A DNA stretch of 47,889 nucleotides from a virus (lineage: Duplodnaviria > Caudoviricetes). This document shows, in pieces, positions 5,901 to 46,328 of this stretch (positions are counted from its first letter, which is position 1; every line of letters starts with the position of its first letter). The stretch covers positions 1 through 47,889 of the IMG/VR virus record IMGVR_UViG_3300037419_000284; one strand, given 5' to 3'. Below the pieces are notes generated by a model. That model had not been told where the DNA came from. It did no database searches and was given only the letters and a program-made list of their open reading frames with translations. A program made the position numbers and the translations under genes.

Positions 5901-8900
5901 AATAGTCCACATTTGGTCATTACCCGCATAGATACCAACATGGTGAATACTGTCAGCACTTTTACCAAAGAATACTAAATCCCCAGGTTGCAAGTCTTTC
6001 TTGTTTGTTACTTTTTTACCACCATCATTTTGAGCATATAGCCCTTTTGAACTTGTAGTACCAAGATTGATTCCTGCAAACTTACGGTAAACTTGCTCTA
6101 CTAGACCCGAACAGTCAGCAATACCCTTCTTCAAGAACTCTGTCCAATCTTCGATAACATGTGCTCCACCCCAAGAGTAAGTCAATTTAGACCTATCTCC
6201 TTTTACTGACGAGAACCATGAATCCATAGCTGAGTAGCTACCGCCACCACCACTACTTGAAGATGAACCTCCACTGCTTGCACGCAACTTAGCCAACAGG
6301 CTTGTGTTTTGTGATGCTGTACCTGTATAGTTGCTGATGCCATATTGGTGAGCCAACGATGTTCTTGCTGAGAAACTTGAACTCTTTCCAAGTGAATTTA
6401 GGTAAGCTACGATAGAATCGCCAGTATAAGAACTCTTACCAAAACCGCTACTAGCTGATGAAGAACTGCTACCGCCACCTGATGATACTGCTGTACCACC
6501 TAGTAGTGATGAAACAGAAATACCAGTTTGCTTAGAGTAGAATGATGCAACACCCTTCTCCCAATTTGGGTCTTCTGCATATGTGTGATTGATTGTAGGA
6601 ATTGTGTTCTTACCCGAACTAATGTAGTTTCCGATTAGACGAGTTAAGTCCATAATACCATCTGTCAATGTAGCATAGCTTCTGTATCCCTCATAGTTTC
6701 CGCCCTTCCAATAATCATTAGAACTACCAGTAGCTTTAATGTTACCAATATTGTTAGAATGGTTTAAGATGTTTGAGTTACCACCATTTTCTTGCATAGC
6801 GATTGATGCGATTAATCTAGGGTCAACACCGTACTTAGCACCCGCTTGAACGAATACTGAACCATATCCTGCTAAGTTACCTCTTAATACACCGTTGATT
6901 GTATTAGTATAGTCATTAACACCACTATTGTTCTTGGTTGGAACAGTGTTCTTATCAACCTCAGCGACTAACTCCTCGTGTGTATAAGATGATTCTAGTT
7001 GTCGTTTCATTTGGGCATATCCCGAAGTACCAACTTTATAGCCCATTTGCTCTAGGTATGCTTGCTCCTTTTGAGCGAATGTTCTATTGTCAACACTAGA
7101 AGGACTACCAGTGTAAGTAGGAATTGCCATAGCATTTGAGAATGACTGTGTTTGACCTGCAACAGAGTTAGGATTAGATGCCGAACTCATTTGTACTTTT
7201 GCCCAGTTTCCTAGAATAGTATTTAATGAATTTGCACCATTAAGGATTGTGTCTCCCGCTTTTTGGAAGTCGTTCTTGATTAGGTTCTTAAGTGGGTCAA
7301 TAAATGCCTTATCAAACTCGCTACCCATAGTCTTGTTAATATCATCATATGCCTGAGATAACTTCTGAGCGTCACCCTTGTAAGAGTTTAATGCAGTAGT
7401 CAATTTCTCATAGTTGTCAAGGTTAGTGTCACGGATTTGTGCCAACTTGTCATTTCTAGTAGCATTGTAAGGAGTGCCAGTAACAGCACTTCTCATTTGT
7501 GATAATGTATTAACTACAGCTAAATCATCCTGAGAGTTAGAAATTTGCTTGTTAGCATCTTTAACTAATTGAGTCCTGTTCTGAACTCTCTCCCATACAT
7601 CAGCATACTTATCAGAGTTTAATACCATATCCTTAAGCTGTTGTGCTTGGTCATACATATCAGCAGTAGTAGATGATACGCTGTCTTGGATAGATGTTTG
7701 TTTCTCTAATAGGTCTTTGTATGCTTGTTGCTCCGAAGACAAACCATTTTTTCCTGGGTTGTATAGTTCGTTGATGGAGAAGTCTTGGTTAGGGTTCTGT
7801 CTAGCTAATGTAGCCATCTCATTACTTACAGAACTAAGTTCTGCTTGATAGCCTTTTAGTAGTTGACCTGATGCTTTAATTAAGCCACCCTGAGCAGTTT
7901 GCTGTTCCTTACTATTTGGCTGAGACATTTGAACCATAGCACGACCCATACCAACCGCACTATTGATTTTGCTAATCTGAGCATCCATTACAGCTAGACC
8001 AGTAGATGCAACAATTAGTTGTGCTGTATACTGTTTCATAGCCTCTTGGTTTTGTAATTGGTCTTGTCTGCTTTGAGTATAGGCATCAGTTAATTGGTCT
8101 TGTGCGTCACCTAGACCACCCATAGTCATGATAAGTTTAGCGATATTTTTAAGAAGTTCTGCCTCGTCAATCTTTTGATTGATTTCTTTATCAGACATTC
8201 CTTTCTTTTTCCATTTCGCAATATCAGTTGTAGATGGTTCAGAGTAATTGCCTAAGAATTGGTCTAAGTTGCCTGACTGTTTAGCTAACTCATATTGGTA
8301 TTGAACATCATCAATCTTACTCTGTTTCACACCATGCTTAAGTGCAATACTGCTCTCTTTGGATAGTTGACCTTGTAGACTGTTCATGTTGCCGTCTATT
8401 TGGTTTTTCTTCTCCTCGATTTGTGCAGATTGAGTTTTGATTGCGTTCATACCTTGTTGAATTGCTTGGATTTTTTGATTTAGAGATTCAGTTGAGTTTG
8501 CACCCATGAATTTCATATCAATAGCATCCACATTGTATCCTAGTTCCTTCATAGCTTGACTAATTTGCTTAGTAAGTTTGTTAGTTTCAATCAAAGCCTT
8601 GTTATAATCCATAACATAGCTAGTATCAACTGCCCACTTATCTTTAGCCTCTAAGATAGGGTCTTTGAATCCATTGTCAACAGCCTTTTGGAATTTAGCC
8701 ATATCCTTCTTATCATTTAGGTCAGCCCTATATTCCTTCTTATCCATCTTGCCATCAGCACCAAGAAGGTGATATTTTACGAACTGATTACCCTTGCTAT
8801 CTTGACCGAAAGAGATACCGTACTTATCTTCCATCTTCTTTCTATCTGATGCGATTTTAGCATTTCTAGCTTGTGCTTTCATATCATATTCAGAAGTAGG

Positions 8901-11900
8901 AACAGATTCAGTAGTAGTATATCCGTAGTTACCTTGTGAAGTAACTGTTGTCTCTTTCATAAACTTAACATTCGCCTTGATGAAGTCTTGAATGTCTTTG
9001 TTAGTTTTATCCTTAGTAGCAGTGTCACCACCAGTAATCTTCTTAGAGACAGATATTAGACTCTTGTTTGTGGTATTGTATTGGTCTTGTGCTACCTTCT
9101 TAGAGTGTTCGATAGCTTTACTTACAACCCACCAAGCACCCGCTAACACAGTACCAATGATAGTTAATCTAGTTAATAGTAATCCAAATGTTCTTAATGC
9201 AGGTAGTAGTTTAACAAACCATTCTACTACACCTTTCATTATTCCACCCGCACGACTACCAACTGAACCTGCTACCTCACCTACTGCACCACGAGAACGA
9301 GAAGTTAATAGTAAAGTATCTCCAATGAAGTTACCTACCGCACCAATAGCACTTCTTCTAGCAGTTGTTCTCTCAATAGTGTTAGTAAGTTCACCACGCA
9401 TAGCTTGTAGACTTTCACGACTTGCCTCACTCATATTGATTCCAGTTGGAACAGTAGTTCTTGGAGCACTACCATTTAAAAGTCTGTTTGTCATAACATC
9501 TGATGCAGAGTATGTCATTACATCTCTTAATGCTTGCTCACCAGTTCTAACTACATTTTGACGAGGGCTTATCATAGGTACAGGAGCAAGACCCTCAGCT
9601 ACGCTAATTGCACGACCACCCCTAACAAGAGGTGTAGCACCTTCTATTTGCTTGAATCCAAGTCTACGACCTGTCATTCTTTCAAAGTAGTCGCCAATAG
9701 CAGGACCAAGTGGAGTTAAATGATTGATAACACCTGTCAATCCTTTGAAAGCTAATGTTAATCCAACTATTTCACTAGTCATTTTTACTGGATTGAATCC
9801 AAATAATATTTTATTATCAGAGAAAGCATCTGATAGTTTATTAATAACTGATAGTACGCTATTAACAACTTTGAATAATCCTGTAAATCCTTTAATTAAC
9901 AATCCGATTGTATCTAAAGCACCCAACTTAGCTAGTTGTTGAACTAGTTCCTTAACTTGTTCAGCTAGGTCTCCAAAGTTTCTCTTGATTGTATCTGAAA
10001 AAGAACTCCATGATTTTTGTAGTGCATCAGGATTAGCCTCAGCTTGCTTGTTGAACTCACCTGTATATTCACTATTAAATGATGCATCTAGGAACTTAAC
10101 CATTTTTGGACCCATAGCTGATGATTTACCAGTTAGTCCTGCTAGATTATTAGAAACGAACTCTTGGTCAGCCTCATTGAGACCGCCATATTTCTTTTTA
10201 ATCTGCTCAAATAGTTTCTCAGGTGTGTCATATTTATCAGTGTTAATTTTCATTCTGTCTAATGCAGATTTAACGCTTGGATTGTCAGGATGTGCTAACG
10301 CACCGAAGAACGCTTTACCAACTTGTGCCATAACAGCACCACTAGAGTCCGTATCAGTAAGGTTATATGCACCCAACATACCTGCAACATCTGTTGCCTT
10401 GATACCTTTTTTGATTGTATCAGGTGCAATTTCAGATAGTGCATCAGTTACATTGTTTGTGTTTACACCATTACCTTTCATAACTGCTAGGTAGTTGAAT
10501 AAGTTATCCATTTTACCAATATGAGATGTATCACCTTGCGTATACATAGCTTGGTATAATGAAAGAGAATCTTGTGCTATAGCATTAACATCTGCTGATG
10601 TTGCATCTCCACCATTAGAAACTGCTGAGAACTGAATGATTTTATCTACGATGTTCTTCTCAATATTAGGGTCAACTTTACCACTAATTTGACCATTACT
10701 TGTAATCAAGTTCTTTCTAGCTAAAACTTGTGCTTGTAATGGAACTACTGTATCTGCTGTACTAACACCATAGTTCTCACCAATACTAAATGCTTGGTTA
10801 GTGATGTTTGATTTTGCAGAGTTTATTCCCGCACCGAATTGAGAGAACTGGTCACTTAAACCGCCAGTTTGCATGTTAGTCATAACCATACTTACTTGTG
10901 CAAGTTTAGCATCAAAGTCAACCATTTGTGCTACCGCAGTACCAATAGCTTGTGACATAGCGTAGAATCCACTAGTAAATAATGTATAGACTCCAATATT
11001 TTTCATCATATTAGATGCCATAGATTTGAAACTTCTGTCTCCACGCTGAACAACTTCTCCAAGACTAGTATACTCGTGAGTTAATGTTCTAACTGAACGG
11101 ATATGACCTTCATCATCACGGTAGTTGATTGTGTATGCTCTTTGGAAGTTAGTTTGTTGTTCTCTAGCCATAGCCTGATTCGTTGGGTGAATGTGGTCTC
11201 TAAGTATTCTCATACTTTCAGATAGACTGACATTAGGGTTTCTAAGCATAGCATCATAATCTACACCTGAGTACTCTCTGTTAGCACCGTAACGAAGGAT
11301 ACCTTGGTTGAAGTCATTTGCTCTTTGTTGTCTATTAGACTCAGTAATTCTTGAACGGTTAATATCGTTAGCTTGCTTATGAGCCTCATTAACATCTTCT
11401 ACACGACCATAGTTAGGGTTTCCGTTGCGTTGCTCGTAAGCATTTACATAGTCATTCCATTGTTGTCTGCTAGTATTTCTTAGCTTTTCCCCCGCCTGTT
11501 GGTAAGGGTCAACATGGTTAGACTGTAATGAACTACGATACTTAGGAGTAGAGTTTGTTAATGCTTTAATTTGGTCATAGAAACTTTGTTCTTCATCAAT
11601 AGCTTTTTGAATATCTTTTTGCATTTTAGCGATATTATCTAATACTCTACGCTTGTTAGCATTACCAGTAATATTCTTCCCGCTAACTGAATCACGATAT
11701 TGTTGTAGCTTACTTTGAAGACCAACACGAACATTCTTAGTGTCATAGTACTTTTCATCTAATGAACGGTTATCAACAGGAGGAGTATTAGCCTCAGCCT
11801 CTCTTTGAGACTTACGATTCATACGCTCTTGATATTTTCTTTGATTCTCAGCCTGTTGTTGGTTGAAAATTTTATTTTGTTGTACCGCTTGCCTATATGC

Positions 11901-13226
11901 TACCTTAGGGTCTTGTACCCTACCGTAGTTCATATTTACATCATGAGCCATATCCCAAGCATCAGCAGGATTCTGTATTCTCTGCTTATTAGCTTGATAG
12001 ATTTGATATTCTCTTTTTCTTTGCTCTCTAAGCCCTTGATTTTGTAATGTGTTCATTTGAGCACGAGAAACACCATCCCAAGGAGATGTTTGTTGTCTCT
12101 TTGCTGTCCACACTCTATCATATCTATTAGCCTGTCTATGAGCATTATCTATCTCTTTTTGAAGTGCATCTAATTCTTTTAGCTTTCTTTCAGCCTCAGC
12201 CTTAGAGATGTTATTGATTACTTTTTCTTGTGATGTAGGTTGTGTAGCAAGCCTAGTTACAGACTTATTAACCTGAGCAGTACTAAAGCTACCTGCTTTT
12301 TGTTTAGCAATCTCAGAGGCTTGATTTGCTCTCTTGATTTGATTAGCTAGTTTTTCTTGTTTACGAAGTTCATCTTCAAGTTGCTTAGTATAGTCAGTAA
12401 CGGAAACATTTTTCTTACTTCCATCCTGTCCATATGCAACCATGTTGTCTGTTTTACGAGCCTTCTTAGGATTCTTAGCCCTGTCAAGTTCATCTCTTAA
12501 GTGTTGTAGTTCTTGCTCACTCTTGATTTGACTCTTAAGGTTCTCAGCTTTTTGTCTATAGTAAAGACGAACCTCGTCATAATCCCTCTTAGCTTGTTGT
12601 GCTGTATTTCTATTGCTATTGTTTCTAGAAACTTGTTGTCTAGCGTTATTGACAGGAGAAACACTTCTGTCTACACCTAGCCTACGGTCTCCGTTCCTAT
12701 GGTCTTGTTGTGCTACTACACTAGCTTTAACCTCAGCCTTAATAGACTCAATTTGAGCCTTGATAACTTTCATATCTTGGTCATTAAGTCTTAAGCCTAC
12801 ATTAATAGTAGCTTTGGTGTCACCGACCTGTTTCTGAATCCCTTCTTTTTCGCCCGCACCGACTTTGAGAGAGGTATTGACAGAAATAGTTTTCTTGTCG
12901 TCTGCTAGACTATTAATTTGTTTTCTAAGTTCACTAATGCGGTTTTGTAGTTTTCTAATACTACCTTCATCAATAGAGATAGGAAGTTTAATAGTAGGTG
13001 CTTGACCTTTATTATATCCATCTACTACCCTTTTAACATCACCTTGTAGCTTTGATATGTTAGGGTCTACAGATAAAGGTACTTTAATACCACCAGTTTT
13101 AGCGTTATCAAAGTGTTGTTTAATCTGTTTATCTACTTCTTTAACTTCATTAAGAAGTTTATTAATCGAACCAGTGTTTAACTGTAAGTCCGTTTTTATA
13201 ATATACTTAAATTCATTTCCTGCCAT
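2970..13226 (-). CDS. Tape measure protein with GH73/lysozyme-like, DUF3597-like, NlpC/P60 and two SH3b domains
   Basis: 3418 aa, long helical core; motifs YGVDPRLIASIAMQE, YSWGG..DCSGLV..PGDLVFF..HVGIY, VNFRSSAG..IPKG..GWAHVKY; GAGGAGG RBS. Confidence 0.92.
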   Translation of the reverse strand: MAGNEFKYIIKTDLQLNTGSINKLLNEVKEVDKQIKQHFDNAKTGGIKVPLSVDPNISKLQGDVKRVVDGYNKGQAPTIKLPISIDEGSIRKLQNRISELRKQINSLADDKKTISVNTSLKVGAGEKEGIQKQVGDTKATINVGLRLNDQDMKVIKAQIESIKAEVKASVVAQQDHRNGDRRLGVDRSVSPVNNARQQVSRNNSNRNTAQQAKRDYDEVRLYYRQKAENLKSQIKSEQELQHLRDELDRAKNPKKARKTDNMVAYGQDGSKKNVSVTDYTKQLEDELRKQEKLANQIKRANQASEIAKQKAGSFSTAQVNKSVTRLATQPTSQEKVINNISKAEAERKLKELDALQKEIDNAHRQANRYDRVWTAKRQQTSPWDGVSRAQMNTLQNQGLREQRKREYQIYQANKQRIQNPADAWDMAHDVNMNYGRVQDPKVAYRQAVQQNKIFNQQQAENQRKYQERMNRKSQREAEANTPPVDNRSLDEKYYDTKNVRVGLQSKLQQYRDSVSGKNITGNANKRRVLDNIAKMQKDIQKAIDEEQSFYDQIKALTNSTPKYRSSLQSNHVDPYQQAGEKLRNTSRQQWNDYVNAYEQRNGNPNYGRVEDVNEAHKQANDINRSRITESNRQQRANDFNQGILRYGANREYSGVDYDAMLRNPNVSLSESMRILRDHIHPTNQAMAREQQTNFQRAYTINYRDDEGHIRSVRTLTHEYTSLGEVVQRGDRSFKSMASNMMKNIGVYTLFTSGFYAMSQAIGTAVAQMVDFDAKLAQVSMVMTNMQTGGLSDQFSQFGAGINSAKSNITNQAFSIGENYGVSTADTVVPLQAQVLARKNLITSNGQISGKVDPNIEKNIVDKIIQFSAVSNGGDATSADVNAIAQDSLSLYQAMYTQGDTSHIGKMDNLFNYLAVMKGNGVNTNNVTDALSEIAPDTIKKGIKATDVAGMLGAYNLTDTDSSGAVMAQVGKAFFGALAHPDNPSVKSALDRMKINTDKYDTPEKLFEQIKKKYGGLNEADQEFVSNNLAGLTGKSSAMGPKMVKFLDASFNSEYTGEFNKQAEANPDALQKSWSSFSDTIKRNFGDLAEQVKELVQQLAKLGALDTIGLLIKGFTGLFKVVNSVLSVINKLSDAFSDNKILFGFNPVKMTSEIVGLTLAFKGLTGVINHLTPLGPAIGDYFERMTGRRLGFKQIEGATPLVRGGRAISVAEGLAPVPMISPRQNVVRTGEQALRDVMTYSASDVMTNRLLNGSAPRTTVPTGINMSEASRESLQAMRGELTNTIERTTARRSAIGAVGNFIGDTLLLTSRSRGAVGEVAGSVGSRAGGIMKGVVEWFVKLLPALRTFGLLLTRLTIIGTVLAGAWWVVSKAIEHSKKVAQDQYNTTNKSLISVSKKITGGDTATKDKTNKDIQDFIKANVKFMKETTVTSQGNYGYTTTESVPTSEYDMKAQARNAKIASDRKKMEDKYGISFGQDSKGNQFVKYHLLGADGKMDKKEYRADLNDKKDMAKFQKAVDNGFKDPILEAKDKWAVDTSYVMDYNKALIETNKLTKQISQAMKELGYNVDAIDMKFMGANSTESLNQKIQAIQQGMNAIKTQSAQIEEKKNQIDGNMNSLQGQLSKESSIALKHGVKQSKIDDVQYQYELAKQSGNLDQFLGNYSEPSTTDIAKWKKKGMSDKEINQKIDEAELLKNIAKLIMTMGGLGDAQDQLTDAYTQSRQDQLQNQEAMKQYTAQLIVASTGLAVMDAQISKINSAVGMGRAMVQMSQPNSKEQQTAQGGLIKASGQLLKGYQAELSSVSNEMATLARQNPNQDFSINELYNPGKNGLSSEQQAYKDLLEKQTSIQDSVSSTTADMYDQAQQLKDMVLNSDKYADVWERVQNRTQLVKDANKQISNSQDDLAVVNTLSQMRSAVTGTPYNATRNDKLAQIRDTNLDNYEKLTTALNSYKGDAQKLSQAYDDINKTMGSEFDKAFIDPLKNLIKNDFQKAGDTILNGANSLNTILGNWAKVQMSSASNPNSVAGQTQSFSNAMAIPTYTGSPSSVDNRTFAQKEQAYLEQMGYKVGTSGYAQMKRQLESSYTHEELVAEVDKNTVPTKNNSGVNDYTNTINGVLRGNLAGYGSVFVQAGAKYGVDPRLIASIAMQENGGNSNILNHSNNIGNIKATGSSNDYWKGGNYEGYRSYATLTDGIMDLTRLIGNYISSGKNTIPTINHTYAEDPNWEKGVASFYSKQTGISVSSLLGGTAVSSGGGSSSSSASSGFGKSSYTGDSIVAYLNSLGKSSSFSARTSLAHQYGISNYTGTASQNTSLLAKLRASSGGSSSSSGGGGSYSAMDSWFSSVKGDRSKLTYSWGGAHVIEDWTEFLKKGIADCSGLVEQVYRKFAGINLGTTSSKGLYAQNDGGKKVTNKKDLQPGDLVFFGKSADSIHHVGIYAGNDQMWTIDHNGTPVSKDNISSWGDYYGGKHYDGAFGGAGSLTQGQASASDILKSAINSFITAMQAEAETHSVAGLKETYNKDVAIAYGQGNITDVMGTSGRLAYYDRVNAERANVFEQRYDTVQQLNQLSTSRKNYVNEANKALKAGNTTDYNTYKDAVKSIDDLISTLKDTNKQLADYDKTLSDAQQKDPRYNYDTSMSYVKGGYDKLNAMDKAGQEWSPDYIKLLGEMSTMLTTYDTHAKNTQLAGDVWSNSGQQTTQFIMAKRVSDQDNINLMFDKITKINAVLKNFAQGTNAWYTTLEEAVKVQQELHDLEQQRLQNAQSMFELTGKGIQGYVKQKAYTQSKDYSQEKSNLTTAINQYKNGTITNGSGLRIALGSSDKYAKGLSDILHKQYDISSKVTKDKDGKYYLDSTKNLTKDQAQKVIDTLKKQGHIGNGWTTGGGSSKMDENQQLANLQIIAGLHDQMIQQMNDYRSAVVGAFKAGAMSLDEYMKKMNDLRDVQNETKENAVKMVDALSSGFQDAFANALSGGMQGNMDSTQSFIDSMKQTMAQTISGTMASSIFNNSGLLDVTNGLISQITQAATSGDPNAVANMFNNNDFSQQFQDALAPFLPLINQIVASTNGMFTIMKNQVFNAPNGFKIDSEVAQVAKAKGIGEVRQWDPTGKNGSGSDDGSGSTTTTPIVTPPSSSTPGGVPGGTSSGGATSNGGSPEGTGGTGTGAPSTSGSTTTPSTDTSKINTPAPPASSSKKGTYITTSDVWDHKTPDANKSSRIKVIKKGTKVNVIGEKSGFLEIGTNQWISAQYAKAYTSSGGSGSGSGSSGSTKHINTTVNFRSSAGYGNNVIGTIPKGSAVTYLGTSNGWAHVKYGSKSGYVGPQFVYHTGGLAGMMNFSSPNGLKPDELQAVLRQGEGVFTQKQISSLVGASNTTHNGGDVNFNITVNVEGGQDTGQLQATVETAVKKAMQVIKKDTKFQNLTFKGTSY

Positions 13227-29019: not shown

Positions 29020-29048
29020 TTGACATTATAGGAACAAATTGGTATTAT
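29020..29048 (+). promoter_or_regulatory. sigmaA-type promoter of the recombinase gene
   Basis: TTGACA-17 nt-TATTAT. Confidence 0.7.
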
Positions 29049-29086
29049 TGTGTTATCGGAACAAACAAACATTGGAGGTTGGTACA

Positions 29087-29911
29087 ATGGAAAAATACCT
29101 TAATCATTTTTTGAACTATATTCGTGTCGAGAAAAACCTTTCTCAAAATACTATTGTTGCTTATAGGAAAGACATTGAACAGTACTTTAATATGTGTAAT
29201 ATCAAAGGACTAGAACAACTTGATAAATTTACTATACGAGATTATTTGTCGAAAATTAGTAAGCTAGCACCTACGTCTAGACGAAGAAAACTATCAGCTT
29301 TACGAGCCTTTATGGGCTTTCTGTCCAGTGAAGGCATAATTGAAAAGAACTTCGCATCAGAGATAGAGAACGCAAAAATCGACAAACGATTGCCTAAGGT
29401 CTTATCTGTTAATGAGACCGCTAGTATAATTGATTCTGCTAATAGCATCCAAGATAGAGCAATATTAGAAACACTATATGGATTAGGTTGTCGTGTTTCT
29501 GAACTTGTAAATATAAAAGTTAGTGATATTGAATTTGATGATAGGACGGTCAGATTGTTCGGTAAAGGAAACAAGGAAAGAATTGTACCAATAAACAATG
29601 CCTCACTATCTGCAATTATAGAACACCTTAATACAAGAGGTTTTAATAGCGAATATGTATTTGCTAGTCGTGTATTAGCTGAAAGACCAATGACTACTAA
29701 GAATGTAAGTAGAGTGGTTGCTAAATATAGTGAGGCACACCCTCATATGTTCAGACACAGTTACGCTACACACTTGCATGCTAATGGTGTTGATATAAAT
29801 GTTATTAAAGACTTACTTGGTCATGCCGACATTAGCACAACAACAATCTATACTCATGTTGCAAACGAACAAATGACTAGAGCATATCGTCATGCTCACC
29901 CAAGGGGCTAA
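29087..29911 (+). CDS. XerC/XerD-like tyrosine recombinase
   Basis: GCRVSEL, GKGNKER, HPHMFRHSYATH, LLGH..STTTIY; GGAGG RBS before ATG 29087. Confidence 0.92.
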   Translation: MEKYLNHFLNYIRVEKNLSQNTIVAYRKDIEQYFNMCNIKGLEQLDKFTIRDYLSKISKLAPTSRRRKLSALRAFMGFLSSEGIIEKNFASEIENAKIDKRLPKVLSVNETASIIDSANSIQDRAILETLYGLGCRVSELVNIKVSDIEFDDRTVRLFGKGNKERIVPINNASLSAIIEHLNTRGFNSEYVFASRVLAERPMTTKNVSRVVAKYSEAHPHMFRHSYATHLHANGVDINVIKDLLGHADISTTTIYTHVANEQMTRAYRHAHPRG

Positions 29912-30533
29912 AGGACTCTCTGAGTTTCTTTACCCCTCTTTTTGTTGCTCTCGAAACATTAGCTTGGTTGATACTCAGTTCTTCCGCAATTTCATCTTGT
30001 GTCATATCTGACATATAATACATAAAGATTAAGTCTCTTTGATGTTCTGTTAGATTCTCTAGACCTTGTTGAATCATAATGTTTTCTATAATCCTGTCTT
30101 CATTAAATGGTTCTTCTAGGTAGTAGTCTAACACATTACTGTTTTCTACTACATGATTACTACCATTATGAGAGATATATCCTACTGGATGGTCAATGCT
30201 AACTGTCTTTCTATCTTCCTTGAAGTAATTCATTTCCTTTTTGTAGAAGTTAAAAATACCATTCCTTGCCCTAGATGTAATATGCCTAATAGCTGAACTA
30301 TCTAGCTTTTCGTCATAATCATACATAGCCTCGATTAATTTTAAATCAATCACCTGACATACATCATCAAACTCTATACCTTTACCTGCGAATTTCTTTG
30401 TTAAAGATTTTCTAAAAGGCTCGAACATCTCTAGAATTACCATCATAGCGTCTTGCTTTTTAAATTCATCTTCACTAGTTTGAATAGTCTGAATTAGTTG
30501 TTTAATGTGTACTTCCTTTTCCTTTTTGCTCAT
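29877..30533 (-). CDS. Phage sigma70-family sigma factor
   Basis: Region 2-like GIEFDDVCQ..YDYD and region 4 HTH LTEHQR..MTQDEIAEELSINQANVSR. Confidence 0.85.
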   Translation of the reverse strand: MSKKEKEVHIKQLIQTIQTSEDEFKKQDAMMVILEMFEPFRKSLTKKFAGKGIEFDDVCQVIDLKLIEAMYDYDEKLDSSAIRHITSRARNGIFNFYKKEMNYFKEDRKTVSIDHPVGYISHNGSNHVVENSNVLDYYLEEPFNEDRIIENIMIQQGLENLTEHQRDLIFMYYMSDMTQDEIAEELSINQANVSRATKRGVKKLRESFSPLGEHDDML

Positions 30534-33407: not shown

Positions 33408-33944
33408 ATGGATTTTAATAAGCCTAAGGTGGCTTGTCCAGTTTGCAACGGTAAAGGCGGATTTAGGAAGTTGAAACAAGACTTCCTAGATAGCAACTGG
33501 ATTGAATGTGCATACTGCGAAAGCTATGGTTTTGTAGATGATACTACAACTGTAGAAGAAGTAAGTAGCCACCTACTATACAACAGATATAAGACTAAGT
33601 TAACAGTTCAACTTGCAAAGCTAGGTGACGTTATTACATGCACATCAGAGCATGAAGGTCATGATATGTTCATTAGGTTCTTACCTTTCAATCGAGAGCC
33701 ATCCGATAGAAAGAAATGGACTACACTAATCAAACACTTACTTAAGTTCTCGCAAAACAGTGAGACAGTAAAGATTTATCCCAAGCAAGCATTTCATCCA
33801 ACCAACGAAGAATATGGTCAAGGATTTGCTATTGATTGGGAGTTACATATAACTACCCACGAACTACAAGACTTAGAGAGTCTAATAGAATTAATTAAGT
33901 TTTATAACGAGACAGTGAATGGAGGTCCGAAATATCTTGATTAA
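33408..33944 (+). CDS. Hypothetical protein with N-terminal DnaJ-type zinc finger
   Basis: CPVCNGKG..CAYCESYG; AAAGGAG RBS before ATG 33408. Confidence 0.6.
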   Translation: MDFNKPKVACPVCNGKGGFRKLKQDFLDSNWIECAYCESYGFVDDTTTVEEVSSHLLYNRYKTKLTVQLAKLGDVITCTSEHEGHDMFIRFLPFNREPSDRKKWTTLIKHLLKFSQNSETVKIYPKQAFHPTNEEYGQGFAIDWELHITTHELQDLESLIELIKFYNETVNGGPKYLD

Positions 33945-34707
33945 CATAGCACTAACATTCTTAGGAACTGGTAGTGCCTTCTCTAAAAGGTTCGGAAATA
34001 ACAGTGCGGTTTTGACAGTTGGAGACAAGAATTTACTCATAGATTGTGGTCGAACAACTCCTGACGACTTAGACAAGTCAGAGTTCAAATGGAGCGACAT
34101 TGATGCCATCTTTATAACTCACTTGCATGGAGACCATGTATACGGTTTAGAGGAGGCAGGATTTATGGGTCGATATGTTTTTCGACAAAAACCGCATATT
34201 ATTTTTCCTCACAAGAAGATTAAGGTAGACTTGTGGGAGAAGGTTCTCAAAGGTACAATGATGCAAGGCGACTTGGAAAGAAACATGACATTTGATGATT
34301 ACTTTACATATGAGATTGTTGATGATAGACAACAGTACTTTGAATTTAATGGTGTCATGATTTCAGTTTTTTCTACACAACATGTAACAAACAAAAAATC
34401 ATATGGACTGATTATCGGAGAGTTTGATTATATTGTTTATACATCAGATTCATTATTCGATAGCGAAATGATAACTGCTTTCCATCGAGGAGGAGCACAA
34501 AAGATATTCCACGATTGTCAAATGGTTGGTTATGACGGTCAAGTACATGCCTCGTTAGATGAACTAGCTACTTTACCCAAAAATATTCGTAAGGATATAG
34601 TTATCATGCACTACGGAGATGACCTAGAAAACCATTTTACTAAGGTTAAAGATTTACAATTAGGTATCGCATTACCAAGAATTACACAAACATTCGTAGT
34701 TAAGTAG
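33919..34707 (+). CDS. apyc1: MBL-fold hydrolase, Apyc1 (anti-Pycsar)-like
   Basis: GTGSAFSK.F.NNSA, LLIDCG, ITHLHGDH..GLEE, FHDCQ, VHASLDEL, MHYGD match my recollection of Bacillus phage Apyc1. Confidence 0.8.
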   Translation: MEVRNILINIALTFLGTGSAFSKRFGNNSAVLTVGDKNLLIDCGRTTPDDLDKSEFKWSDIDAIFITHLHGDHVYGLEEAGFMGRYVFRQKPHIIFPHKKIKVDLWEKVLKGTMMQGDLERNMTFDDYFTYEIVDDRQQYFEFNGVMISVFSTQHVTNKKSYGLIIGEFDYIVYTSDSLFDSEMITAFHRGGAQKIFHDCQMVGYDGQVHASLDELATLPKNIRKDIVIMHYGDDLENHFTKVKDLQLGIALPRITQTFVVK

Positions 34708-34815: not shown

Positions 34816-35475
34816 ATGGAAGCGAAGAAGTTTCTTTTCAAATCTAGTAGTATCTTATCCGTAGCTATTTTATTGGCAGGTCTAATGACAGTCGGTGATA
34901 CTAAGGCACAAGATATTCAAGAAACAAGCAAGGTAGTGAAGATTGAAAAAACATTACCTGTAGAGAAAGTTGTTACAAAGCAAGACTACTTCGGTTTACT
35001 AGAGAAAGCTAGTGAGGTTTCAAAACAGAAGTATGAATTTCAAGTAAGGAATGAGTCTCCCCCGAGACCGCAACCGAAAATCCAACCAAAACCACAAGTA
35101 AAGGTTGTTACTAAGGTTGCTCCGAAACCTACCCCACCACCAAAACCACACTACAGACAAGTCCATGTGGTAGCAACTGCATATACGAACAGTTGTGCGG
35201 GCTGTACTGGAATAACATCAACAGGAGTTAATATTAAAAACACAATCTACCACGAAGGCTATCGTGTGATAGCAACAGACCCTTCGGTTATTCCAACACA
35301 TTCCGTAGTGAGAATTGAAACTAATAATGGTAGTTTCCTAGCAATAGCAGAAGATAAAGGTGGAGCAATACATGGCTCAATTATAGATGTACTTGTGTCT
35401 TCATATAACGATGCTATACGCTTTGGAAGACAGCGTGTAACGATTACAATACTAAGAGAGGGTGATGGTTCATGA
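34816..35475 (+). CDS. Exported 3D-domain (YocH-like) cell wall protein
   Basis: Signal-like N-terminus, Pro/Lys linker, ATAYT..IATDPSVIP..AEDKGGAI..IIDV. Confidence 0.85.
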   Translation: MEAKKFLFKSSSILSVAILLAGLMTVGDTKAQDIQETSKVVKIEKTLPVEKVVTKQDYFGLLEKASEVSKQKYEFQVRNESPPRPQPKIQPKPQVKVVTKVAPKPTPPPKPHYRQVHVVATAYTNSCAGCTGITSTGVNIKNTIYHEGYRVIATDPSVIPTHSVVRIETNNGSFLAIAEDKGGAIHGSIIDVLVSSYNDAIRFGRQRVTITILREGDGS

Positions 35476-35675
35476 CGATGAAAGAAAGCTATACAGAGGC
35501 TACTGAGTGGCTCTCAGCACACCCACGAAACGGAATACTTATCAGAGTAAAAACAGAGAGTGAACTTAAAAAATATCAAAAGTTCTTTAAGGCAGAGATA
35601 GAATATGATTTGTTTTTAGATGATACTGTTTACGATAGAATTGAATGGCGAATTGACCCTACCGTTGATAAATAA
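35472..35675 (+). CDS. Hypothetical protein
   Basis: 67 aa, ATGA overlap with the upstream gene. Confidence 0.55.
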   Translation: MTMKESYTEATEWLSAHPRNGILIRVKTESELKKYQKFFKAEIEYDLFLDDTVYDRIEWRIDPTVDK

Positions 35676-35702
35676 AGTTATAATATAAATATAATTCACC
35701 CC

Positions 35703-35731
35703 TTGACTTTTTAGTACAAGGGGTTTATAAT
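35703..35731 (+). promoter_or_regulatory. sigmaA-type promoter
   Basis: TTGACT-17 nt-TATAAT. Confidence 0.8.
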
Positions 35732-35761
35732 ATAAATATAATACATGAGGAGATGGTTGGC

Positions 35762-35899
35762 ATGTTGAAAATAGATAAAGAGAAAATGGCGAAAGCATAC
35801 GTTGAGATGGGAGCAATTAATCTCTCAATCTCAGAAGAATATAATCAAACAGAATTAAAAGAGTATTTAGAAATGGAGGTAGAATTAGGTGCAATTTAA
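35762..35899 (+). CDS. 45-aa MazE (NdoAI) C-terminal mimic, putative MazF inhibitor
   Basis: Not in the ORF track; GAGGAG RBS; MLKIDKEKMAKAYVEMGAINLSISEEYNQTELKEYLEMEVELGAI resembles B. subtilis NdoAI MRRGYMEMAKINLNISSE as I recall it. Confidence 0.75.
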   Translation: MLKIDKEKMAKAYVEMGAINLSISEEYNQTELKEYLEMEVELGAI

Positions 35900-36170
35900 C
35901 GAGGTAACAGAAAAGGAATTGATACTACAAATGCTACTAGCTGAGTGCATTAGACGACTTAGCAAGAATGGTAAGCATAAAGTATCAATCACTAATAGAC
36001 AATTAGAAATGTTGGTAGATAACGAGATGGAAGTTGACTTCTCTGAGTCAAATGATATTAGATTCATCTTAAAGTACCAAAAGATGCAAGACGATATTGA
36101 GGTAATAGCAAATGTAGTAGTGCCAAGAGAGAAGTTGGTGGTTACAGATGAAAGCGTACCTAGCGAATAG
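35889..36170 (+). CDS. Hypothetical protein
   Basis: 93 aa; GTG start with GGAGG RBS. Confidence 0.6.
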   Translation: MQFNEVTEKELILQMLLAECIRRLSKNGKHKVSITNRQLEMLVDNEMEVDFSESNDIRFILKYQKMQDDIEVIANVVVPREKLVVTDESVPSE

Positions 36171-36669
36171 TTTATTTAGCCAAGCAGATGCCATGTATAA
36201 CGCATACATAGCTGAACAACTTCGCATAGCCTTTCCTGATTTAGAACTATACGTTCCTCAGGAAAATGAGGCTATCAATGACAAACAGGCATATGCTAAT
36301 TCATTAATGATTAGACGAGGTGACGATAAACCACTATTACTATCTGATTTTCTAGTAGCAGTAATAGACGGATGTGAAATCGACTCAGGTGTAGCTTGTG
36401 AGATAGGTAAGTTAGCAGGTTACGATATGGCTCGTCATGATTTACTAGGTCTACCATATAGACCAATCTTCGCTTTATTTACAGATGTTCGTCAACAAGG
36501 TAGAGATAATCGACAAAAGATTGAGGCACTTATTAAGAACTCAGTTGAGAATCAATTTCCCTACCGCAATTTGTATGTAATTGGAACTATCTACAACTCA
36601 AATGGAGATGTTGTTCCTAATGTTGCAGAATTAATTGATGCAATTCGTAAATATATTAGTAGCAATTAG
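36148..36669 (+). CDS. Nucleoside 2-deoxyribosyltransferase-family protein
   Basis: AYLAN.LF, YVPQEN, DFLVAVIDG..IDSGVACEIG. Confidence 0.8.
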   Translation: MKAYLANSLFSQADAMYNAYIAEQLRIAFPDLELYVPQENEAINDKQAYANSLMIRRGDDKPLLLSDFLVAVIDGCEIDSGVACEIGKLAGYDMARHDLLGLPYRPIFALFTDVRQQGRDNRQKIEALIKNSVENQFPYRNLYVIGTIYNSNGDVVPNVAELIDAIRKYISSN

Positions 36670-37059
36670 TTTTTGATTAGGAAAGTCGGAATTGGAGATA
36701 GTTCGGGACCGACATAGGCAGGTGATAGGGGTTAATTCCTGCTAGCCCCAAGGCGGGCAAATTGGAGAGTTGCTAGCCTCTCTAGGAAATACGCATGGGC
36801 GAAGGTAGCGGGTGCGTACAAGTCTCTTGATGGGTTTAGTGGAGACACAAAACAAACTACTCTCACAAAGCTACATTACCACGAATAACAATTAAGTTGG
36901 TGGTCACTATGCACAGTCAGAAATGTAGCACTACATTAAGTCCATGTTGATACTACAGACCGAGATGGCAAAGTAGAAAACGAATCATGGCAACGGTAAA
37001 GACTGGTCGGAATCACAAAGGAAGGGATAGGGGCTAAAGCTAAGTTCCTCCTTCTCACG
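36668..37059 (+). ncRNA. Large structured intergenic RNA with group I intron-like core features
   Basis: ORF-free, GC-richer than its flanks, at least seven helices; P7-like CAGACCG (36956-36962)/UGGUCG (37004-37009); terminal hairpin 37021-37054 then G37059. Confidence 0.6.
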
Positions 37060-37066
37060 TTTACCC

Positions 37067-37095
37067 TTGACTTTTGAGACAAGGCATGCTATAAT
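37067..37095 (+). promoter_or_regulatory. sigmaA-type extended -10 promoter for the RNA array and DUF2828-like gene
   Basis: TTGACT-17 nt-TATAAT with TG at 37087-37088. Confidence 0.85.
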
Positions 37096-37113
37096 ATATT
37101 TATAAGATAACGA

Positions 37114-37179
37114 GAGACACTAACAGCAACCCTACTACTTACACAATCAAATGGTGATTATTTTAGTATAAGGTGTCTC
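37114..37179 (+). ncRNA. ACAGCAA-motif RNA unit 1
   Basis: Closing stem GAGACAC/GTGTCTC, ACAGCAA at 37123-37129, inner TACTA/TAGTA helix and AATCA/TGATT hairpin. Confidence 0.7.
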
Positions 37180-37191
37180 GTTGAAAACGTA

Positions 37192-37289
37192 AAGGCTCAT
37201 ACAGCAAACCAAACAAGCTGACATTGGTTGTCAAACTTTCTGCTAAAAAGTCCTTAGTGGGTTCGATTCCCACCTAACTACTGAGCCTT
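37192..37289 (+). ncRNA. ACAGCAA-motif RNA unit 2, tRNA mimic
   Basis: Closing stem AAGGCTCA/TGAGCCTT, ACAGCAA at 37201-37207, D-like, anticodon-like (CT-GCT-AA) and T arms (GTGGG-TTCGATT-CCCAC), no acceptor stem. Confidence 0.75.
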
Positions 37290-37298
37290 GTAAACGTG

Positions 37299-37412
37299 TA
37301 GGCACACACAGCAAAACTACATATGTCTGTTCAAGAAGAACAAACTCACATTAAAAGATATGATGAATCTTTTTATCAGGAGAAATCCATTAGTAGCTAA
37401 AACTTGTGCCTA
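37299..37412 (+). ncRNA. ACAGCAA-motif RNA unit 3
   Basis: Closing stem TAGGCACA/TGTGCCTA, ACAGCAA at 37308-37314, CTAC/GTAG helix enclosing three hairpins, followed by a T-run. Confidence 0.7.
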
Positions 37413-37450
37413 GCTTTTTTTTATGTCCACTATGGAAAGGATGATGTTAA

Positions 37451-44063: not shown

Positions 44064-44092
44064 TTGACTTTTTCGTAAAGATGTATTATAAT
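44064..44092 (+). promoter_or_regulatory. sigmaA-type promoter of the tRNA array
   Basis: TTGACT-17 nt-TATAAT. Confidence 0.8.
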
Positions 44093-44180: not shown

Positions 44181-44251
44181 CACTCTATAGTATAAAGGTA
44201 ATACAGAGGTCTCATAAGCCTTAGTTGGTGGTTCAAGTCCACCTAGAGTGA
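44181..44251 (+). tRNA. tRNA-CAU (elongator Met or Ile2)
   Basis: Acceptor CACTCTA/TAGAGTG, loop CT-CAT-AA. Confidence 0.85.
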
Positions 44252-44253
44252 TA

Positions 44254-44325
44254 AGCAGTGAGGACAAACGGTAAGTTGCTAGGCTCATGCCCTAGAGATA
44301 GTAGGTTCAACTCCTACCACTGCAA
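44254..44325 (+). tRNA. tRNA-CAU, initiator-like (1:72 mismatch)
   Basis: Acceptor AGCAGTG/CACTGCA, loop CT-CAT-GC. Confidence 0.75.
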
Positions 44326-44328
44326 TTA

Positions 44329-44399
44329 CGTCCTATCGTATAATGGTAATACGGACAACTTATAATTGTCTAATATGAGTTCAATTCTCGTTGGGACGA
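44329..44399 (+). tRNA. tRNA-Ile(UAU)
   Basis: Acceptor CGTCCTA/TGGGACG, loop CT-TAT-AA. Confidence 0.85.
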
Positions 44400-44402
44400 T
44401 AT

Positions 44403-44476
44403 GCTGGCATAGCACAATTTGGTGGTGCGTCTGACTTGTAATCAGGAGGTTGGGAGTTCGATTCTCTCTGTCAGCA
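44403..44476 (+). tRNA. tRNA-Thr(UGU)
   Basis: Cloverleaf, loop CT-TGT-AA. Confidence 0.92.
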
Positions 44477-44487
44477 CCTTACACTGA

Positions 44488-44562
44488 TGGGTATTAGTTC
44501 AGTTTGGCTAGAACGCATGCTTTGGGAGCATGAGGTCGCAGGTTCGAGTCCTGTATACCCAA
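44488..44562 (+). tRNA. tRNA-Pro(UGG)
   Basis: Cloverleaf, loop TT-TGG-GA. Confidence 0.92.
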
Positions 44563-44575
44563 TATATTTTGACCC

Positions 44576-44604
44576 TTGACTTTTAACTAACAAGGTGTTA
44601 TAAT
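44576..44604 (+). promoter_or_regulatory. Internal sigmaA-type promoter of the tRNA array
   Basis: TTGACT-17 nt-TATAAT with extended TG. Confidence 0.85.
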
Positions 44605-44625
44605 ACAAATATAAGTTAATAACTT

Positions 44626-44698
44626 TGGCTAGTAGTTCAGTCGGTAGAACAAATGACTGTTAATCATTGGGTCGCAGGTTCGAGTCCTGCCTAGCCAG
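44626..44698 (+). tRNA. tRNA-Asn(GUU)
   Basis: Cloverleaf, loop CT-GTT-AA. Confidence 0.92.
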
Positions 44699-44701
44699 TA
44701 T

Positions 44702-44775
44702 GGGGGATTAGTTAAATGGGATAACATCTGCCTTGCACGCAGAAATCACGAGTTCGACTCTCGTATCTTCCACCA
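44702..44775 (+). tRNA. tRNA-Ala(UGC)
   Basis: Loop CT-TGC-AC, G3:U70, CCA encoded. Confidence 0.92.
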
Positions 44776-44784
44776 ATTTAATAT

Positions 44785-44858
44785 GGCATGTTAGGCAAAC
44801 TGGTTAAGCCGTCACCCTTTCAAGGTGGAGATTGTGGGTTCGAGTCCCATACATGTCA
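44785..44858 (+). tRNA. tRNA-Glu(UUC)
   Basis: Cloverleaf, loop CT-TTC-AA. Confidence 0.92.
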
Positions 44859-44861
44859 TTT

Positions 44862-44935
44862 GGAGCATTGATGTAGTGGTAACATAGCTGACTGTCTATC
44901 AGCCATCAGGGGTTCAAATCCCCTATGCTTCGCCA
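44862..44935 (+). tRNA. tRNA-Asp(GUC)
   Basis: Loop CT-GTC-TA, G73, CCA encoded. Confidence 0.9.
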
Positions 44936-44936
44936 A

Positions 44937-45007
44937 CGTCCATTAGTTTAACGGGAAAACATCTCTCTTACAAAGAGAAATTGGCAGTTCGATTCTGTCA
45001 TGGACGA
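44937..45007 (+). tRNA. tRNA-Val(UAC)
   Basis: Cloverleaf, loop CT-TAC-AA. Confidence 0.9.
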
Positions 45008-45018
45008 TATTAATATAT

Positions 45019-45108
45019 GTGTCGATGGGTGAGTGGTTAATACCGACAGTCTGTAAAACTGTTCTCGTTAAGTCGGGTACGTTGGTTCAAATCCAACTCG
45101 GCACACCA
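45019..45108 (+). tRNA. tRNA-Tyr(GUA)
   Basis: Loop CT-GTA-AA, long variable arm, CCA encoded. Confidence 0.92.
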
Positions 45109-45112
45109 TTAT

Positions 45113-45188
45113 GGAGGAGTAGCTGATGTGGTCTTAGCACTAGCTTGAAACCCTAGAGATATAGGTTCGATTCCTGTCTCCTCTGCCA
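45113..45188 (+). tRNA. tRNA-Phe(GAA), atypical
   Basis: Loop TT-GAA-AC closed by a C:C mismatch, G73, CCA encoded. Confidence 0.7.
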
Positions 45189-45189
45189 T

Positions 45190-45264
45190 GCTGAGTTAGT
45201 ATAACGGTTAGTACACACGACTGATAATCGTGCAATACAAGTTCGATTCTTGTACTCAGTACCA
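45190..45264 (+). tRNA. tRNA-Ile(GAU)
   Basis: Loop CT-GAT-AA, CCA encoded. Confidence 0.92.
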
Positions 45265-45271
45265 ATAATAT

Positions 45272-45345
45272 GTGGGATTAGTATAGCGGTAGTACAGGTG
45301 CTTGCCAAGCATCTAGCACGAGTTCGAGCCTCGTATCTCACACCA
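45272..45345 (+). tRNA. tRNA-Gly(GCC)
   Basis: Loop TT-GCC-AA, CCA encoded. Confidence 0.88.
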
Positions 45346-45355
45346 CGTTTTCTTT

Positions 45356-45427
45356 GCCCTTTTGGTTGAATGGATACAACGTTAGTCTACGGAACTAAAG
45401 GTGGGAGTTCGATTCTCTCAAAGGGTG
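45356..45427 (+). tRNA. tRNA-Arg(ACG)
   Basis: Cloverleaf, loop CT-ACG-GA. Confidence 0.9.
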
Positions 45428-45432
45428 TTTAT

Positions 45433-45504
45433 GTCTCCATAGTGTAAAGGATAACACAAGGGTCTTCTAAGCCTTTAATCTAAGTTCGATTCTTAGTGGG
45501 GATG
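45433..45504 (+). tRNA. tRNA-Arg(UCU)
   Basis: Cloverleaf, loop CT-TCT-AA. Confidence 0.9.
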
Positions 45505-45514
45505 TTATGTTAAT

Positions 45515-45604
45515 GGATAGTTACTCTAATTGGTAAGAGAACAGTCTTGAAAACTGTCGTAGGTATAAAAGCCGATGGGGGTTCGAGTCCCTCACTATCC
45601 TCCA
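45515..45604 (+). tRNA. tRNA-Ser(UGA)
   Basis: Loop CT-TGA-AA, long variable arm, CCA encoded. Confidence 0.92.
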
Positions 45605-45607
45605 TAT

Positions 45608-45697
45608 GGAGTGTTACTCAAGTGGTTAAGAGAACAGTTTGCTAAACTGTCAGCACGTTAATTCGTGGCATGGGTTCAAATCCCATACACTCCTCCA
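45608..45697 (+). tRNA. tRNA-Ser(GCU)
   Basis: Loop TT-GCT-AA, long variable arm, CCA encoded. Confidence 0.92.
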
Positions 45698-45698
45698 T

Positions 45699-45775
45699 CT
45701 CCTGCTACCCAAGTAGACTAAGGGAACTGTCTGCAAAACAGTTATTCATGAGTGCAAATCTCATGCAGGAGTCCA
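45699..45775 (+). tRNA. tRNA-Cys(GCA)
   Basis: Loop CT-GCA-AA, U73, CCA encoded; T-loop reads TGCAAAT. Confidence 0.85.
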
Positions 45776-45778
45776 TAT

Positions 45779-45850
45779 GAGATTGTGGTGAAATGGTTAT
45801 CACTGCTGACTTTTAATCAGTTATTCCGAGTTCGAGTCTCGGCAGTCTCA
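45779..45850 (+). tRNA. tRNA-Lys(UUU)
   Basis: Cloverleaf, loop CT-TTT-AA. Confidence 0.9.
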
Positions 45851-45856
45851 CTTTAT

Positions 45857-45940
45857 GCCGATGTGGTGGAAGTGGCAATACACGCTAGTCTTAGGAACTA
45901 GTGCCTTCGAGGATTGGGAGTTCGAGTCTCTCCATCGGTA
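45857..45940 (+). tRNA. tRNA-Leu(UAG)
   Basis: Loop CT-TAG-GA, long variable arm. Confidence 0.92.
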
Positions 45941-45948
45941 TTCATTAA

Positions 45949-46022
45949 CAAGGTGTGACGTATTGGTAACGTGGCAGGTTGTGACCCTGTTAAAGTCGGT
46001 TCGATTCCGACCTCCTTGACCA
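45949..46022 (+). tRNA. tRNA-His(GUG), atypical
   Basis: Loop TT-GTG-AC, A73, no encoded G-1, CCA encoded. Confidence 0.75.
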
Positions 46023-46035
46023 ACGTGTTGTTTAT

Positions 46036-46109
46036 GTGGTGCTAGTATAGTGGTAATACTCCTGACTTCCAATCAGGCATCAAGGGTTCGACCCCCTTGC
46101 ATCACACCA
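46036..46109 (+). tRNA. tRNA-Gly(UCC)
   Basis: Loop CT-TCC-AA, CCA encoded. Confidence 0.88.
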
Positions 46110-46115
46110 AATTAT

Positions 46116-46189
46116 AGGGGATTAGCTTAGTGGTAGAGCAACCGACTTTGACTCGGTTAGTATAGGTTCGATTCCTATATCCCCCGCCA
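46116..46189 (+). tRNA. tRNA-Gln(UUG)
   Basis: Loop CT-TTG-AC, A1:C72 mismatch, CCA encoded. Confidence 0.88.
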
Positions 46190-46254
46190 ACGTGGTTTTC
46201 CACATTTATCTACCTCCAATGTTGATAAATTAAGGGAGTTTATCTCCCTACCGT

Positions 46255-46328
46255 GAGGGCTTAGTTTACTGGTAGAACAGCGGTCTCCAAAACCGTTAGA
46301 GTGGGTTCGATTCCTACAGCCTTTGCCA
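46255..46328 (+). tRNA. tRNA-Trp(CCA)
   Basis: Loop CT-CCA-AA, G73, CCA encoded. Confidence 0.92.

Follow-up and report, generated by a model that had tools for sequence, protein, structure and literature searches.

The stretch of DNA analysed here (the window) comprises 47,889 bp from an IMG/VR virus record; its GC content is 37%, and the record is estimated to be 24% complete. The minus strand carries the structural module, which includes the terminase, a capsid gene, and an ORF of 3,418 aa (2970-13226) that has NlpC/P60 and SH3 domains and is presumably a giant tape-measure or tail-lysin protein. From ~32 kb onwards an accessory block occupies the plus strand, carrying 24 tRNA genes (44181-46328) with consensus promoters before them at 44064 and 44576. 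Between the two modules are genes for a tyrosine recombinase (29039-29911, plus strand; Phage_integrase, E 3e-40) and for a factor of the sigma-70 family (29877-30533, minus strand); the phage may be temperate, and its own sigma factor is probably used for late genes. Since no phage in the collection searched matches the terminase at more than 31% identity, and the best matches are to Bacillus phages, we take the phage to be uncultivated and infer a host among the Bacillaceae.

Within the accessory block, an ORF on the plus strand at 35762-35899 encodes a peptide of 45 aa, or of 48 aa when read from an upstream ATG at 35753. The ORF (35753/35762-35899) holds KMAKAYVEMGAINLSISEE and reads MVGM-LKIDKEKMAKAYVEMGAINLSISEEYNQTELKEYLEMEVELGAI. 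A Shine-Dalgarno sequence, GAGGAG (35747-35752), lies 9 nt 5′ of the ATG at 35762 and abuts the ATG at 35753; because of this spacing, and because homologues start with MKKID or MKNID, matching the 45-aa start, we take 35762 as the start codon. The MVG extension of the 48-aa form may also be translated, since ATGGT(T/C)GGCATG is conserved in two related loci, L008 and L068; over the Shine-Dalgarno and start region, L008 retains GAGGAGATGGT(T/C)GGCATG and L068 retains GGGGATGGTTGGCATG.

Upstream of the ORF is a sigma-A-type promoter, TTGACT-17 nt-TATAAT (35703-35731, plus strand; score 11/12), which is kept in L008. The accessory block has this pattern six times without a mismatch on its plus strand; allowing up to one mismatch, there are nine copies in the window where 0.92 are expected, a count that none of 100 shuffled sequences reached. 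Overlapping the −35 box is a stable hairpin (35698-35724, plus strand; ΔG −16.1 kcal/mol, z −4.15) followed by UUUAUAAU; none of 200 shuffles folds equally well, and similar GC-rich hairpins are found at the equivalent place in L008 (3935-3961) and L068 (742-775). This hairpin is likely the terminator of the upstream unit, which consists of a 3D-domain gene and orf67, so that the terminator and promoter form a junction at which a new transcription unit begins. On these signals, the peptide gene is the first gene of its unit, and the promoter would be an early one that is read by the host RNA polymerase. A first-pass annotation had described the 45-aa ORF as the first gene behind a consensus promoter with a good ribosome binding site, and the frame, the GAGGAG, and the 11/12 promoter bear this out.

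The peptide gene is followed by orf93 (35889-36170, plus strand), whose GTG start overlaps the end of the peptide gene by 11 nt and has a GGAGG at 35875-35879. In L008, a syntenic relative, the order is Apyc1, 3D-domain gene, orf67, promoter, peptide, orf93, nucleoside deoxyribosyltransferase, and DUF2828; L068 has the same junction at the peptide gene, with the promoter and Shine-Dalgarno region conserved. The Apyc1 homologue, an anti-Pycsar nuclease (Pfam PF23023, E 2e-39), lies 1 kb upstream of the peptide gene in the window (33919-34707, plus strand) as well as being present in L008, and its proximity suggests an anti-defence gene neighbourhood. Further downstream, about 780 nt (36670-37450) are free of ORFs ahead of a DUF2828/DUF7788 gene (phrog_850, 'RNA-binding protein'); this region has a consensus promoter (37067-37095) and a sub-threshold match to a tmRNA/tRNA-like 3′ end (37257-37273, E 4.9e-4) and could encode a structured RNA partner.

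The peptide contains the motif M-x3-Y-x-E-M-x2-I-N-L, which is typical of the C-terminal helix of the antitoxin MazE/EndoAI. The helix core spans residues 5-31 and is followed by an acidic tail, ELKEYLEMEVE. Searches with the single sequence gave weak matches. Using tblastn against 50,697 phage records, we found 35 records at E values from 0.3 to 9, all of them Bacillus phages, including FADO gp40 (49 aa), Nate gp113 (133 aa, deposited as 'antitoxin endoai'), and SPbeta yosL. With phmmer against the PDB, the peptide matched 8anv_C (AimX-type, 'arbitrium putative lysogeny regulator') at E 0.015 and residues 54-80 of 4me7_E (antitoxin EndoAI) at E 0.3; a match to Pol III theta (1du2_A, E 0.2) was judged spurious and unrelated. 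Searches of Pfam and NCBIfam with the window ORF gave no relevant family, only sub-threshold hits to Lumazine_bd_2 (E 0.1) and Pol III theta (E 0.016). The PHROGs collection was more informative: the YosL family, phrog_21769, matched at E 2.1e-5, with residues 6-31 of the peptide falling on profile positions 73-98 of 115, and the Nate gp113 family, phrog_35990, matched at E 1.9e-4.

Profiles gave stronger evidence. We built one alignment from 20 phage sequences (A2), one from 10 sequences of the window's own subfamily, leaving out AimX, YosL, and MazE (A3), and one from 13 cellular MazE-like proteins (A4), 7 of which score above the curated cut-off for the ribbon-helix-helix (RHH) family RHH_1. 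A caveat is that the A3 members were chosen among the matches of a profile in which AimX and YosL were included; the private features that they share, a start MVGMKK and a tail ELKxYLEME, nonetheless mark them as the window's own clade. Against 177,635 PDB sequences, the A3 profile yielded just two matches at E ≤ 1, 4me7_E (3.1e-6) and 8anv_C (7.5e-6), so the profile comparison with NdoAI and AimX envisaged in the first-pass annotation returned both; the MazE/NdoAI string given there also agrees with chain 4me7_E. Aligning A3 with A4 in hhalign gave a probability of 96.4% and an E value of 1.1e-9, over the C-terminal region only. At the level of individual residues, MazE 54-80 and peptide 5-31 are identical at 11 of 27 positions. 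Judged by these comparisons, the similarity to the helix of MazE, AimX, and YosL exceeds chance.

The conserved positions are those expected of a MazF-binding helix. Peptide residues M9, Y13, E15, and M16 are invariant in A2 and correspond to M14, Y18, E20, and M21 of AimX, which are described as identical contact residues in AimX and MazE that enter the groove of the partner dimer (PMC10769878). The same report describes an AimX M14D mutant that binds neither MazF nor the phage protein phi3T_93, while antitoxin activity is reported to be lost in AimX Y18A and YosL Y82A, and the C-terminal domain of YosL is by itself said to block MazF toxicity (bioRxiv 10.1101/2023.04.27.537455). An AlphaFold2 model of the peptide is helical over residues 6-44, with a pLDDT of 97 for residues 11-20. 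The tail is unlike those of MazE, AimX, and YosL: LExExE is preceded by six additional residues, and an ENEAE...LVSG tail is missing.

We propose that the peptide is an early, stand-alone MazF inhibitor, homologous to the MazF-binding helix of Bacillus MazE, and that it probably blocks the host MazF RNase; we favour this reading with some confidence. The peptide copies only the toxin-binding helix of MazE, and on this ground it is predicted to switch off MazF, as AimX and YosL are known to do. Host RNA polymerase would read the promoter at once after infection, and the helix would slot into the groove where the two subunits of the MazF dimer meet, as that of MazE does in 4ME7, excluding RNA. 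Blocking MazF would protect the transcripts of the phage, in which the sense strand of the window carries 30 UACAUA sites, 15 in each module, compared with 18.5 and 10.6 expected; as this phage shows no depletion of TACATA, its transcripts would be exposed to active MazF. The peptide would then be an anti-defence gene sharing its neighbourhood with the Apyc1 homologue. MazEF is reported to restrict both SPbeta and a lytic phi3T mutant when these phages lack their antitoxins, without killing the cell (bioRxiv 10.1101/2023.04.27.537455). Several observations count against a MazF inhibitor: the weak single-sequence E values, the absent Pfam and NCBIfam match for the ORF, the different tail, the constant pairing with orf93 in the window, L008, and L068, and the fact that the Bacillaceae or Bacillus host, and hence its type of MazF, is deduced from relatives only.

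The pairing with orf93 raises the question of the partner. The helix of AimX also binds phi3T_93 (PMC10769878), and MazF therefore need not be the sole or true partner of the peptide. The peptide could accordingly bind a phage protein, most obviously the coupled orf93 product, and regulate a phage decision or another activity, instead of MazF or besides it. That AimX uses the same helix for phi3T_93 (PMC10769878) speaks for this, as does the overlapping stop and start of the peptide-orf93 pair, kept in all three loci, and the integrase-family recombinase in the window makes a role in lysis-lysogeny conceivable. Against it, BLASTP of orf93 with the 84-aa ORF L012:4476-4727, which lies two genes downstream of aimX and is taken by its position as the counterpart of phi3T_93, gave no alignment at E ≤ 100. 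The AlphaFold2 model of orf93 has a pLDDT of 50.4, too poor for a structure search, and gives no pointer to a helix-binding groove; the 21 homologues of orf93 are all unnamed, and neither Pfam nor a further family search found a match for it. Gene overlap is in itself weak evidence of binding. We regard orf93 as a possible functional partner and consider this reading rather unlikely.

A related idea, to which we give about the same modest weight, is that the whole subfamily, with its MVGMKK-type start, its ELKxYLEME tail, and its pairing with orf93, is a retargeted MazE-helix module. Alone or with orf93, it might neutralise a host nuclease or defence protein other than an EndoA-type MazF, or it might couple the sensing of MazF to a phage decision. 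If this were true, the MazE helix would serve phages as a reusable 'groove plug', adapted by them to several targets.

A MazF inhibitor that works on the host enzyme should be distinguished from the antitoxin half of a phage toxin-antitoxin pair of the MazF/PemK type, whose toxin could lie in the ~76% of the genome outside the record. The record's estimated completeness of 24% leaves room for such a toxin, and a short antitoxin would have precedent, as S. aureus-type MazE is also short; the NCBIfam profile has 54 positions and gives FADO gp40 an E value of 3.3e-4. Type II toxin-antitoxin pairs are adjacent as a rule, and here neither gene neighbour, orf67 or orf93, is PemK-like. A six-frame search of the window for PF02452 (PemK/MazF) gave no match, with a positive B. 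subtilis control; tblastn of the AimR of L012 against the window gave a best E of 2.6; and Pfam searches of 44 window ORFs found neither PemK/MazF nor AimR. These absences apply to the window, ~24% of the genome by the completeness estimate, and within it they uphold the first-pass statement that there are no toxin or arbitrium genes. Directly upstream of the peptide are the 3D-domain gene and orf67, not aimR-aimP. G001, a record that is 97% complete and encodes a 49-aa form of the peptide, has neither AimR nor PemK, and the same is true of three other non-SPbeta records; the positive control G005 has AimR; PemK is found in none of the five related records, including G001. We therefore think it very unlikely that the peptide is half of such a pair.

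The first-pass annotation had also called the peptide a stand-alone inhibitor without the DNA-binding domain of MazE. That part stands: RHH_1 gives no match in the 45-aa ORF, whose alignment begins at MazE residue 54, and what is left is the lone helix of the MazE/AimX/YosL type. Among 16 long MazE-like proteins scanned, 9 match RHH_1 at E ≤ 0.01, 7 of them above the curated cut-off. A second MazE-like frame was sought in the window and none was found. The MazF-binding part of the same claim is a prediction from the likeness of the helices.

The leader of the peptide gene contains TACAT (35742-35746, plus strand), followed by G and directly before the Shine-Dalgarno sequence, where the first-pass annotation saw a MazF site. 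If MazF cut there, the peptide mRNA would be cleaved and MazF activity would feed back on the synthesis of its own inhibitor; in favour of this, among the 104 copies of TACAT on the plus strand it is the sole one within 10 nt upstream of a motif resembling a Shine-Dalgarno sequence. The site as transcribed is UACAUG, however, and in reporters varying the sixth base the MazF enzymes of B. subtilis and Listeria are reported to cleave only UACAUA (bioRxiv 10.64898/2026.08.06.743204). The 5-mer also occurs at chance frequency (104 copies against ~93 expected), so that a 30-nt leader would contain it with a probability of ~5%. Neither the L008 nor the L068 leader has it, it is found in 2 of 12 family leaders, and a possible hairpin with the Shine-Dalgarno and start region is not significant (−5 kcal/mol, z −1.16). 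The position of the TACAT is thus as first described, and its function is not upheld: we judge its presence in the leader to be chance, and feedback by this route to be extremely improbable.

The very short length of the ORF and its lack of curated family matches might suggest a frame left open by chance, or a functionless remnant in decay. We hold this to be barely credible, given that the frame and helix are retained at dS 1.26, nine further subfamily sequences align, the profile E values are significant, and the promoter and Shine-Dalgarno sequence are conserved. Comparing the window with L008, the peptide gene has a dN/dS of 0.34 at that dS, with identity concentrated in the helix half, and by this measure it is under purifying selection.

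The protein collection contains an identical 48-aa protein, encoded on 11 contigs and with no name attached, and a search for near relatives in that collection returned only the peptide itself and one relative at 85%; the named members of its subfamily are all 'hypothetical protein'. Searching metagenome contigs with the A3 profile gave one locus, L068; tblastn with A3 found none in genome contigs, a related-loci search with the single peptide found no locus, and megablast of 35300-36700 against the phage collection gave no match. Among 1.84 billion proteins, the A2 profile matches 329 cluster representatives at E ≤ 0.001; 71 of the 150 A2 matches listed (of the 329) are short forms of at most 66 aa, and the 150 include cellular MazE-like proteins. 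The A2 profile had no match among proteins of 208-2000 aa. In viral contigs we counted 61 loci: 23 of AimX type (51 aa), 33 of YosL type, 3 of FADO type (49 aa), L008, and one 85-aa form.

A third architecture also occurs, in which an unrelated helical N-domain precedes a MazE-like helix in proteins of ~125-135 aa (phrog_35990). Examples are L005 2749-3150 (vB_BanS_Nate gp113), P0013, P0027, and P0030. In large siphoviruses these genes precede a RecJ-like exonuclease, the same position as that of the FADO 49-aa form.

With AimX and YosL, SPbeta-like temperate phages are reported to disarm Bacillus MazEF by copying the toxin-binding helix of the antitoxin (PMC10769878; bioRxiv 10.1101/2023.04.27.537455). 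Our analysis suggests the same trick in an unrelated, uncultivated large soil phage, as a bare 45-aa peptide and in a setting that combines an inferred early host-type promoter, a nearby anti-Pycsar gene, and no arbitrium in the sampled part of the genome. This, together with FADO-type phages and the metagenomic short forms, points to MazF inhibition as an anti-defence function that is general among Bacillus-type phages and not a peculiarity of arbitrium systems. The literature that we searched consisted only of phi3T and SPbeta studies, and the titles and passages covered describe no stand-alone MazE-helix peptides for phages without arbitrium. The helix motif offers a simple sequence signature by which such peptides, at present deposited as 'hypothetical' or nameless, can be annotated.

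Of the known systems, AimX of phi3T (51 aa; PDB 8ANV chain C) is, like the peptide, a small stand-alone MazE-like helix. BLASTP aligns the two at 64% identity over 25 residues (pairwise E 2e-9), keeping the M, Y, E, and M contact residues, and in each case expression comes from a promoter at the head of the unit. AimX lies directly downstream of aimR-aimP, a position seen in L012, and is under arbitrium control, whereas the window is without AimR; its tail is HLENEAE, where the peptide has ELKEYLEMEVE with a six-residue insert; and AimX binds phi3T_93, whereas a search next to the window gene gave no homologue of that protein.

YosL of SPbeta-like phages (115-118 aa, phrog_21769) shares its C-terminal MazE-like segment with the peptide (E 2.1e-5) and is described as a lytic-cycle MazF antitoxin that is independent of arbitrium control (bioRxiv 10.1101/2023.04.27.537455). 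It differs in having an N-terminal domain of ~70 residues, reported in the same preprint to have a toxicity of its own, where the peptide has 4-5 residues before the helix, and in lying in a replication/nrd operon, where the window gene shares an accessory region with Apyc1. B. subtilis MazE/EndoAI (94 aa; 4ME7 chain E) shares the helix; the peptide lacks its RHH domain for DNA binding and dimerisation, its adjacent mazF, and its C-terminal tail.

The 49-aa ORFs of the FADO gp40 type in large Bacillus siphoviruses, with gp40 itself deposited as a hypothetical protein, carry this helix on its own in phages that lack arbitrium, and Nate gp113 places it behind an alternative N-domain. This type is 48.9% identical to the peptide over 90% of the query; unlike the window gene, its genes belong to the replication module, where a RecJ-like exonuclease follows them, and encode a tail EGEK...KKGKG. 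The peptide is thus neither an AimX of the arbitrium type nor a YosL or MazE as whole proteins; from the helix that it shares with them, it is predicted to work as AimX and YosL do.
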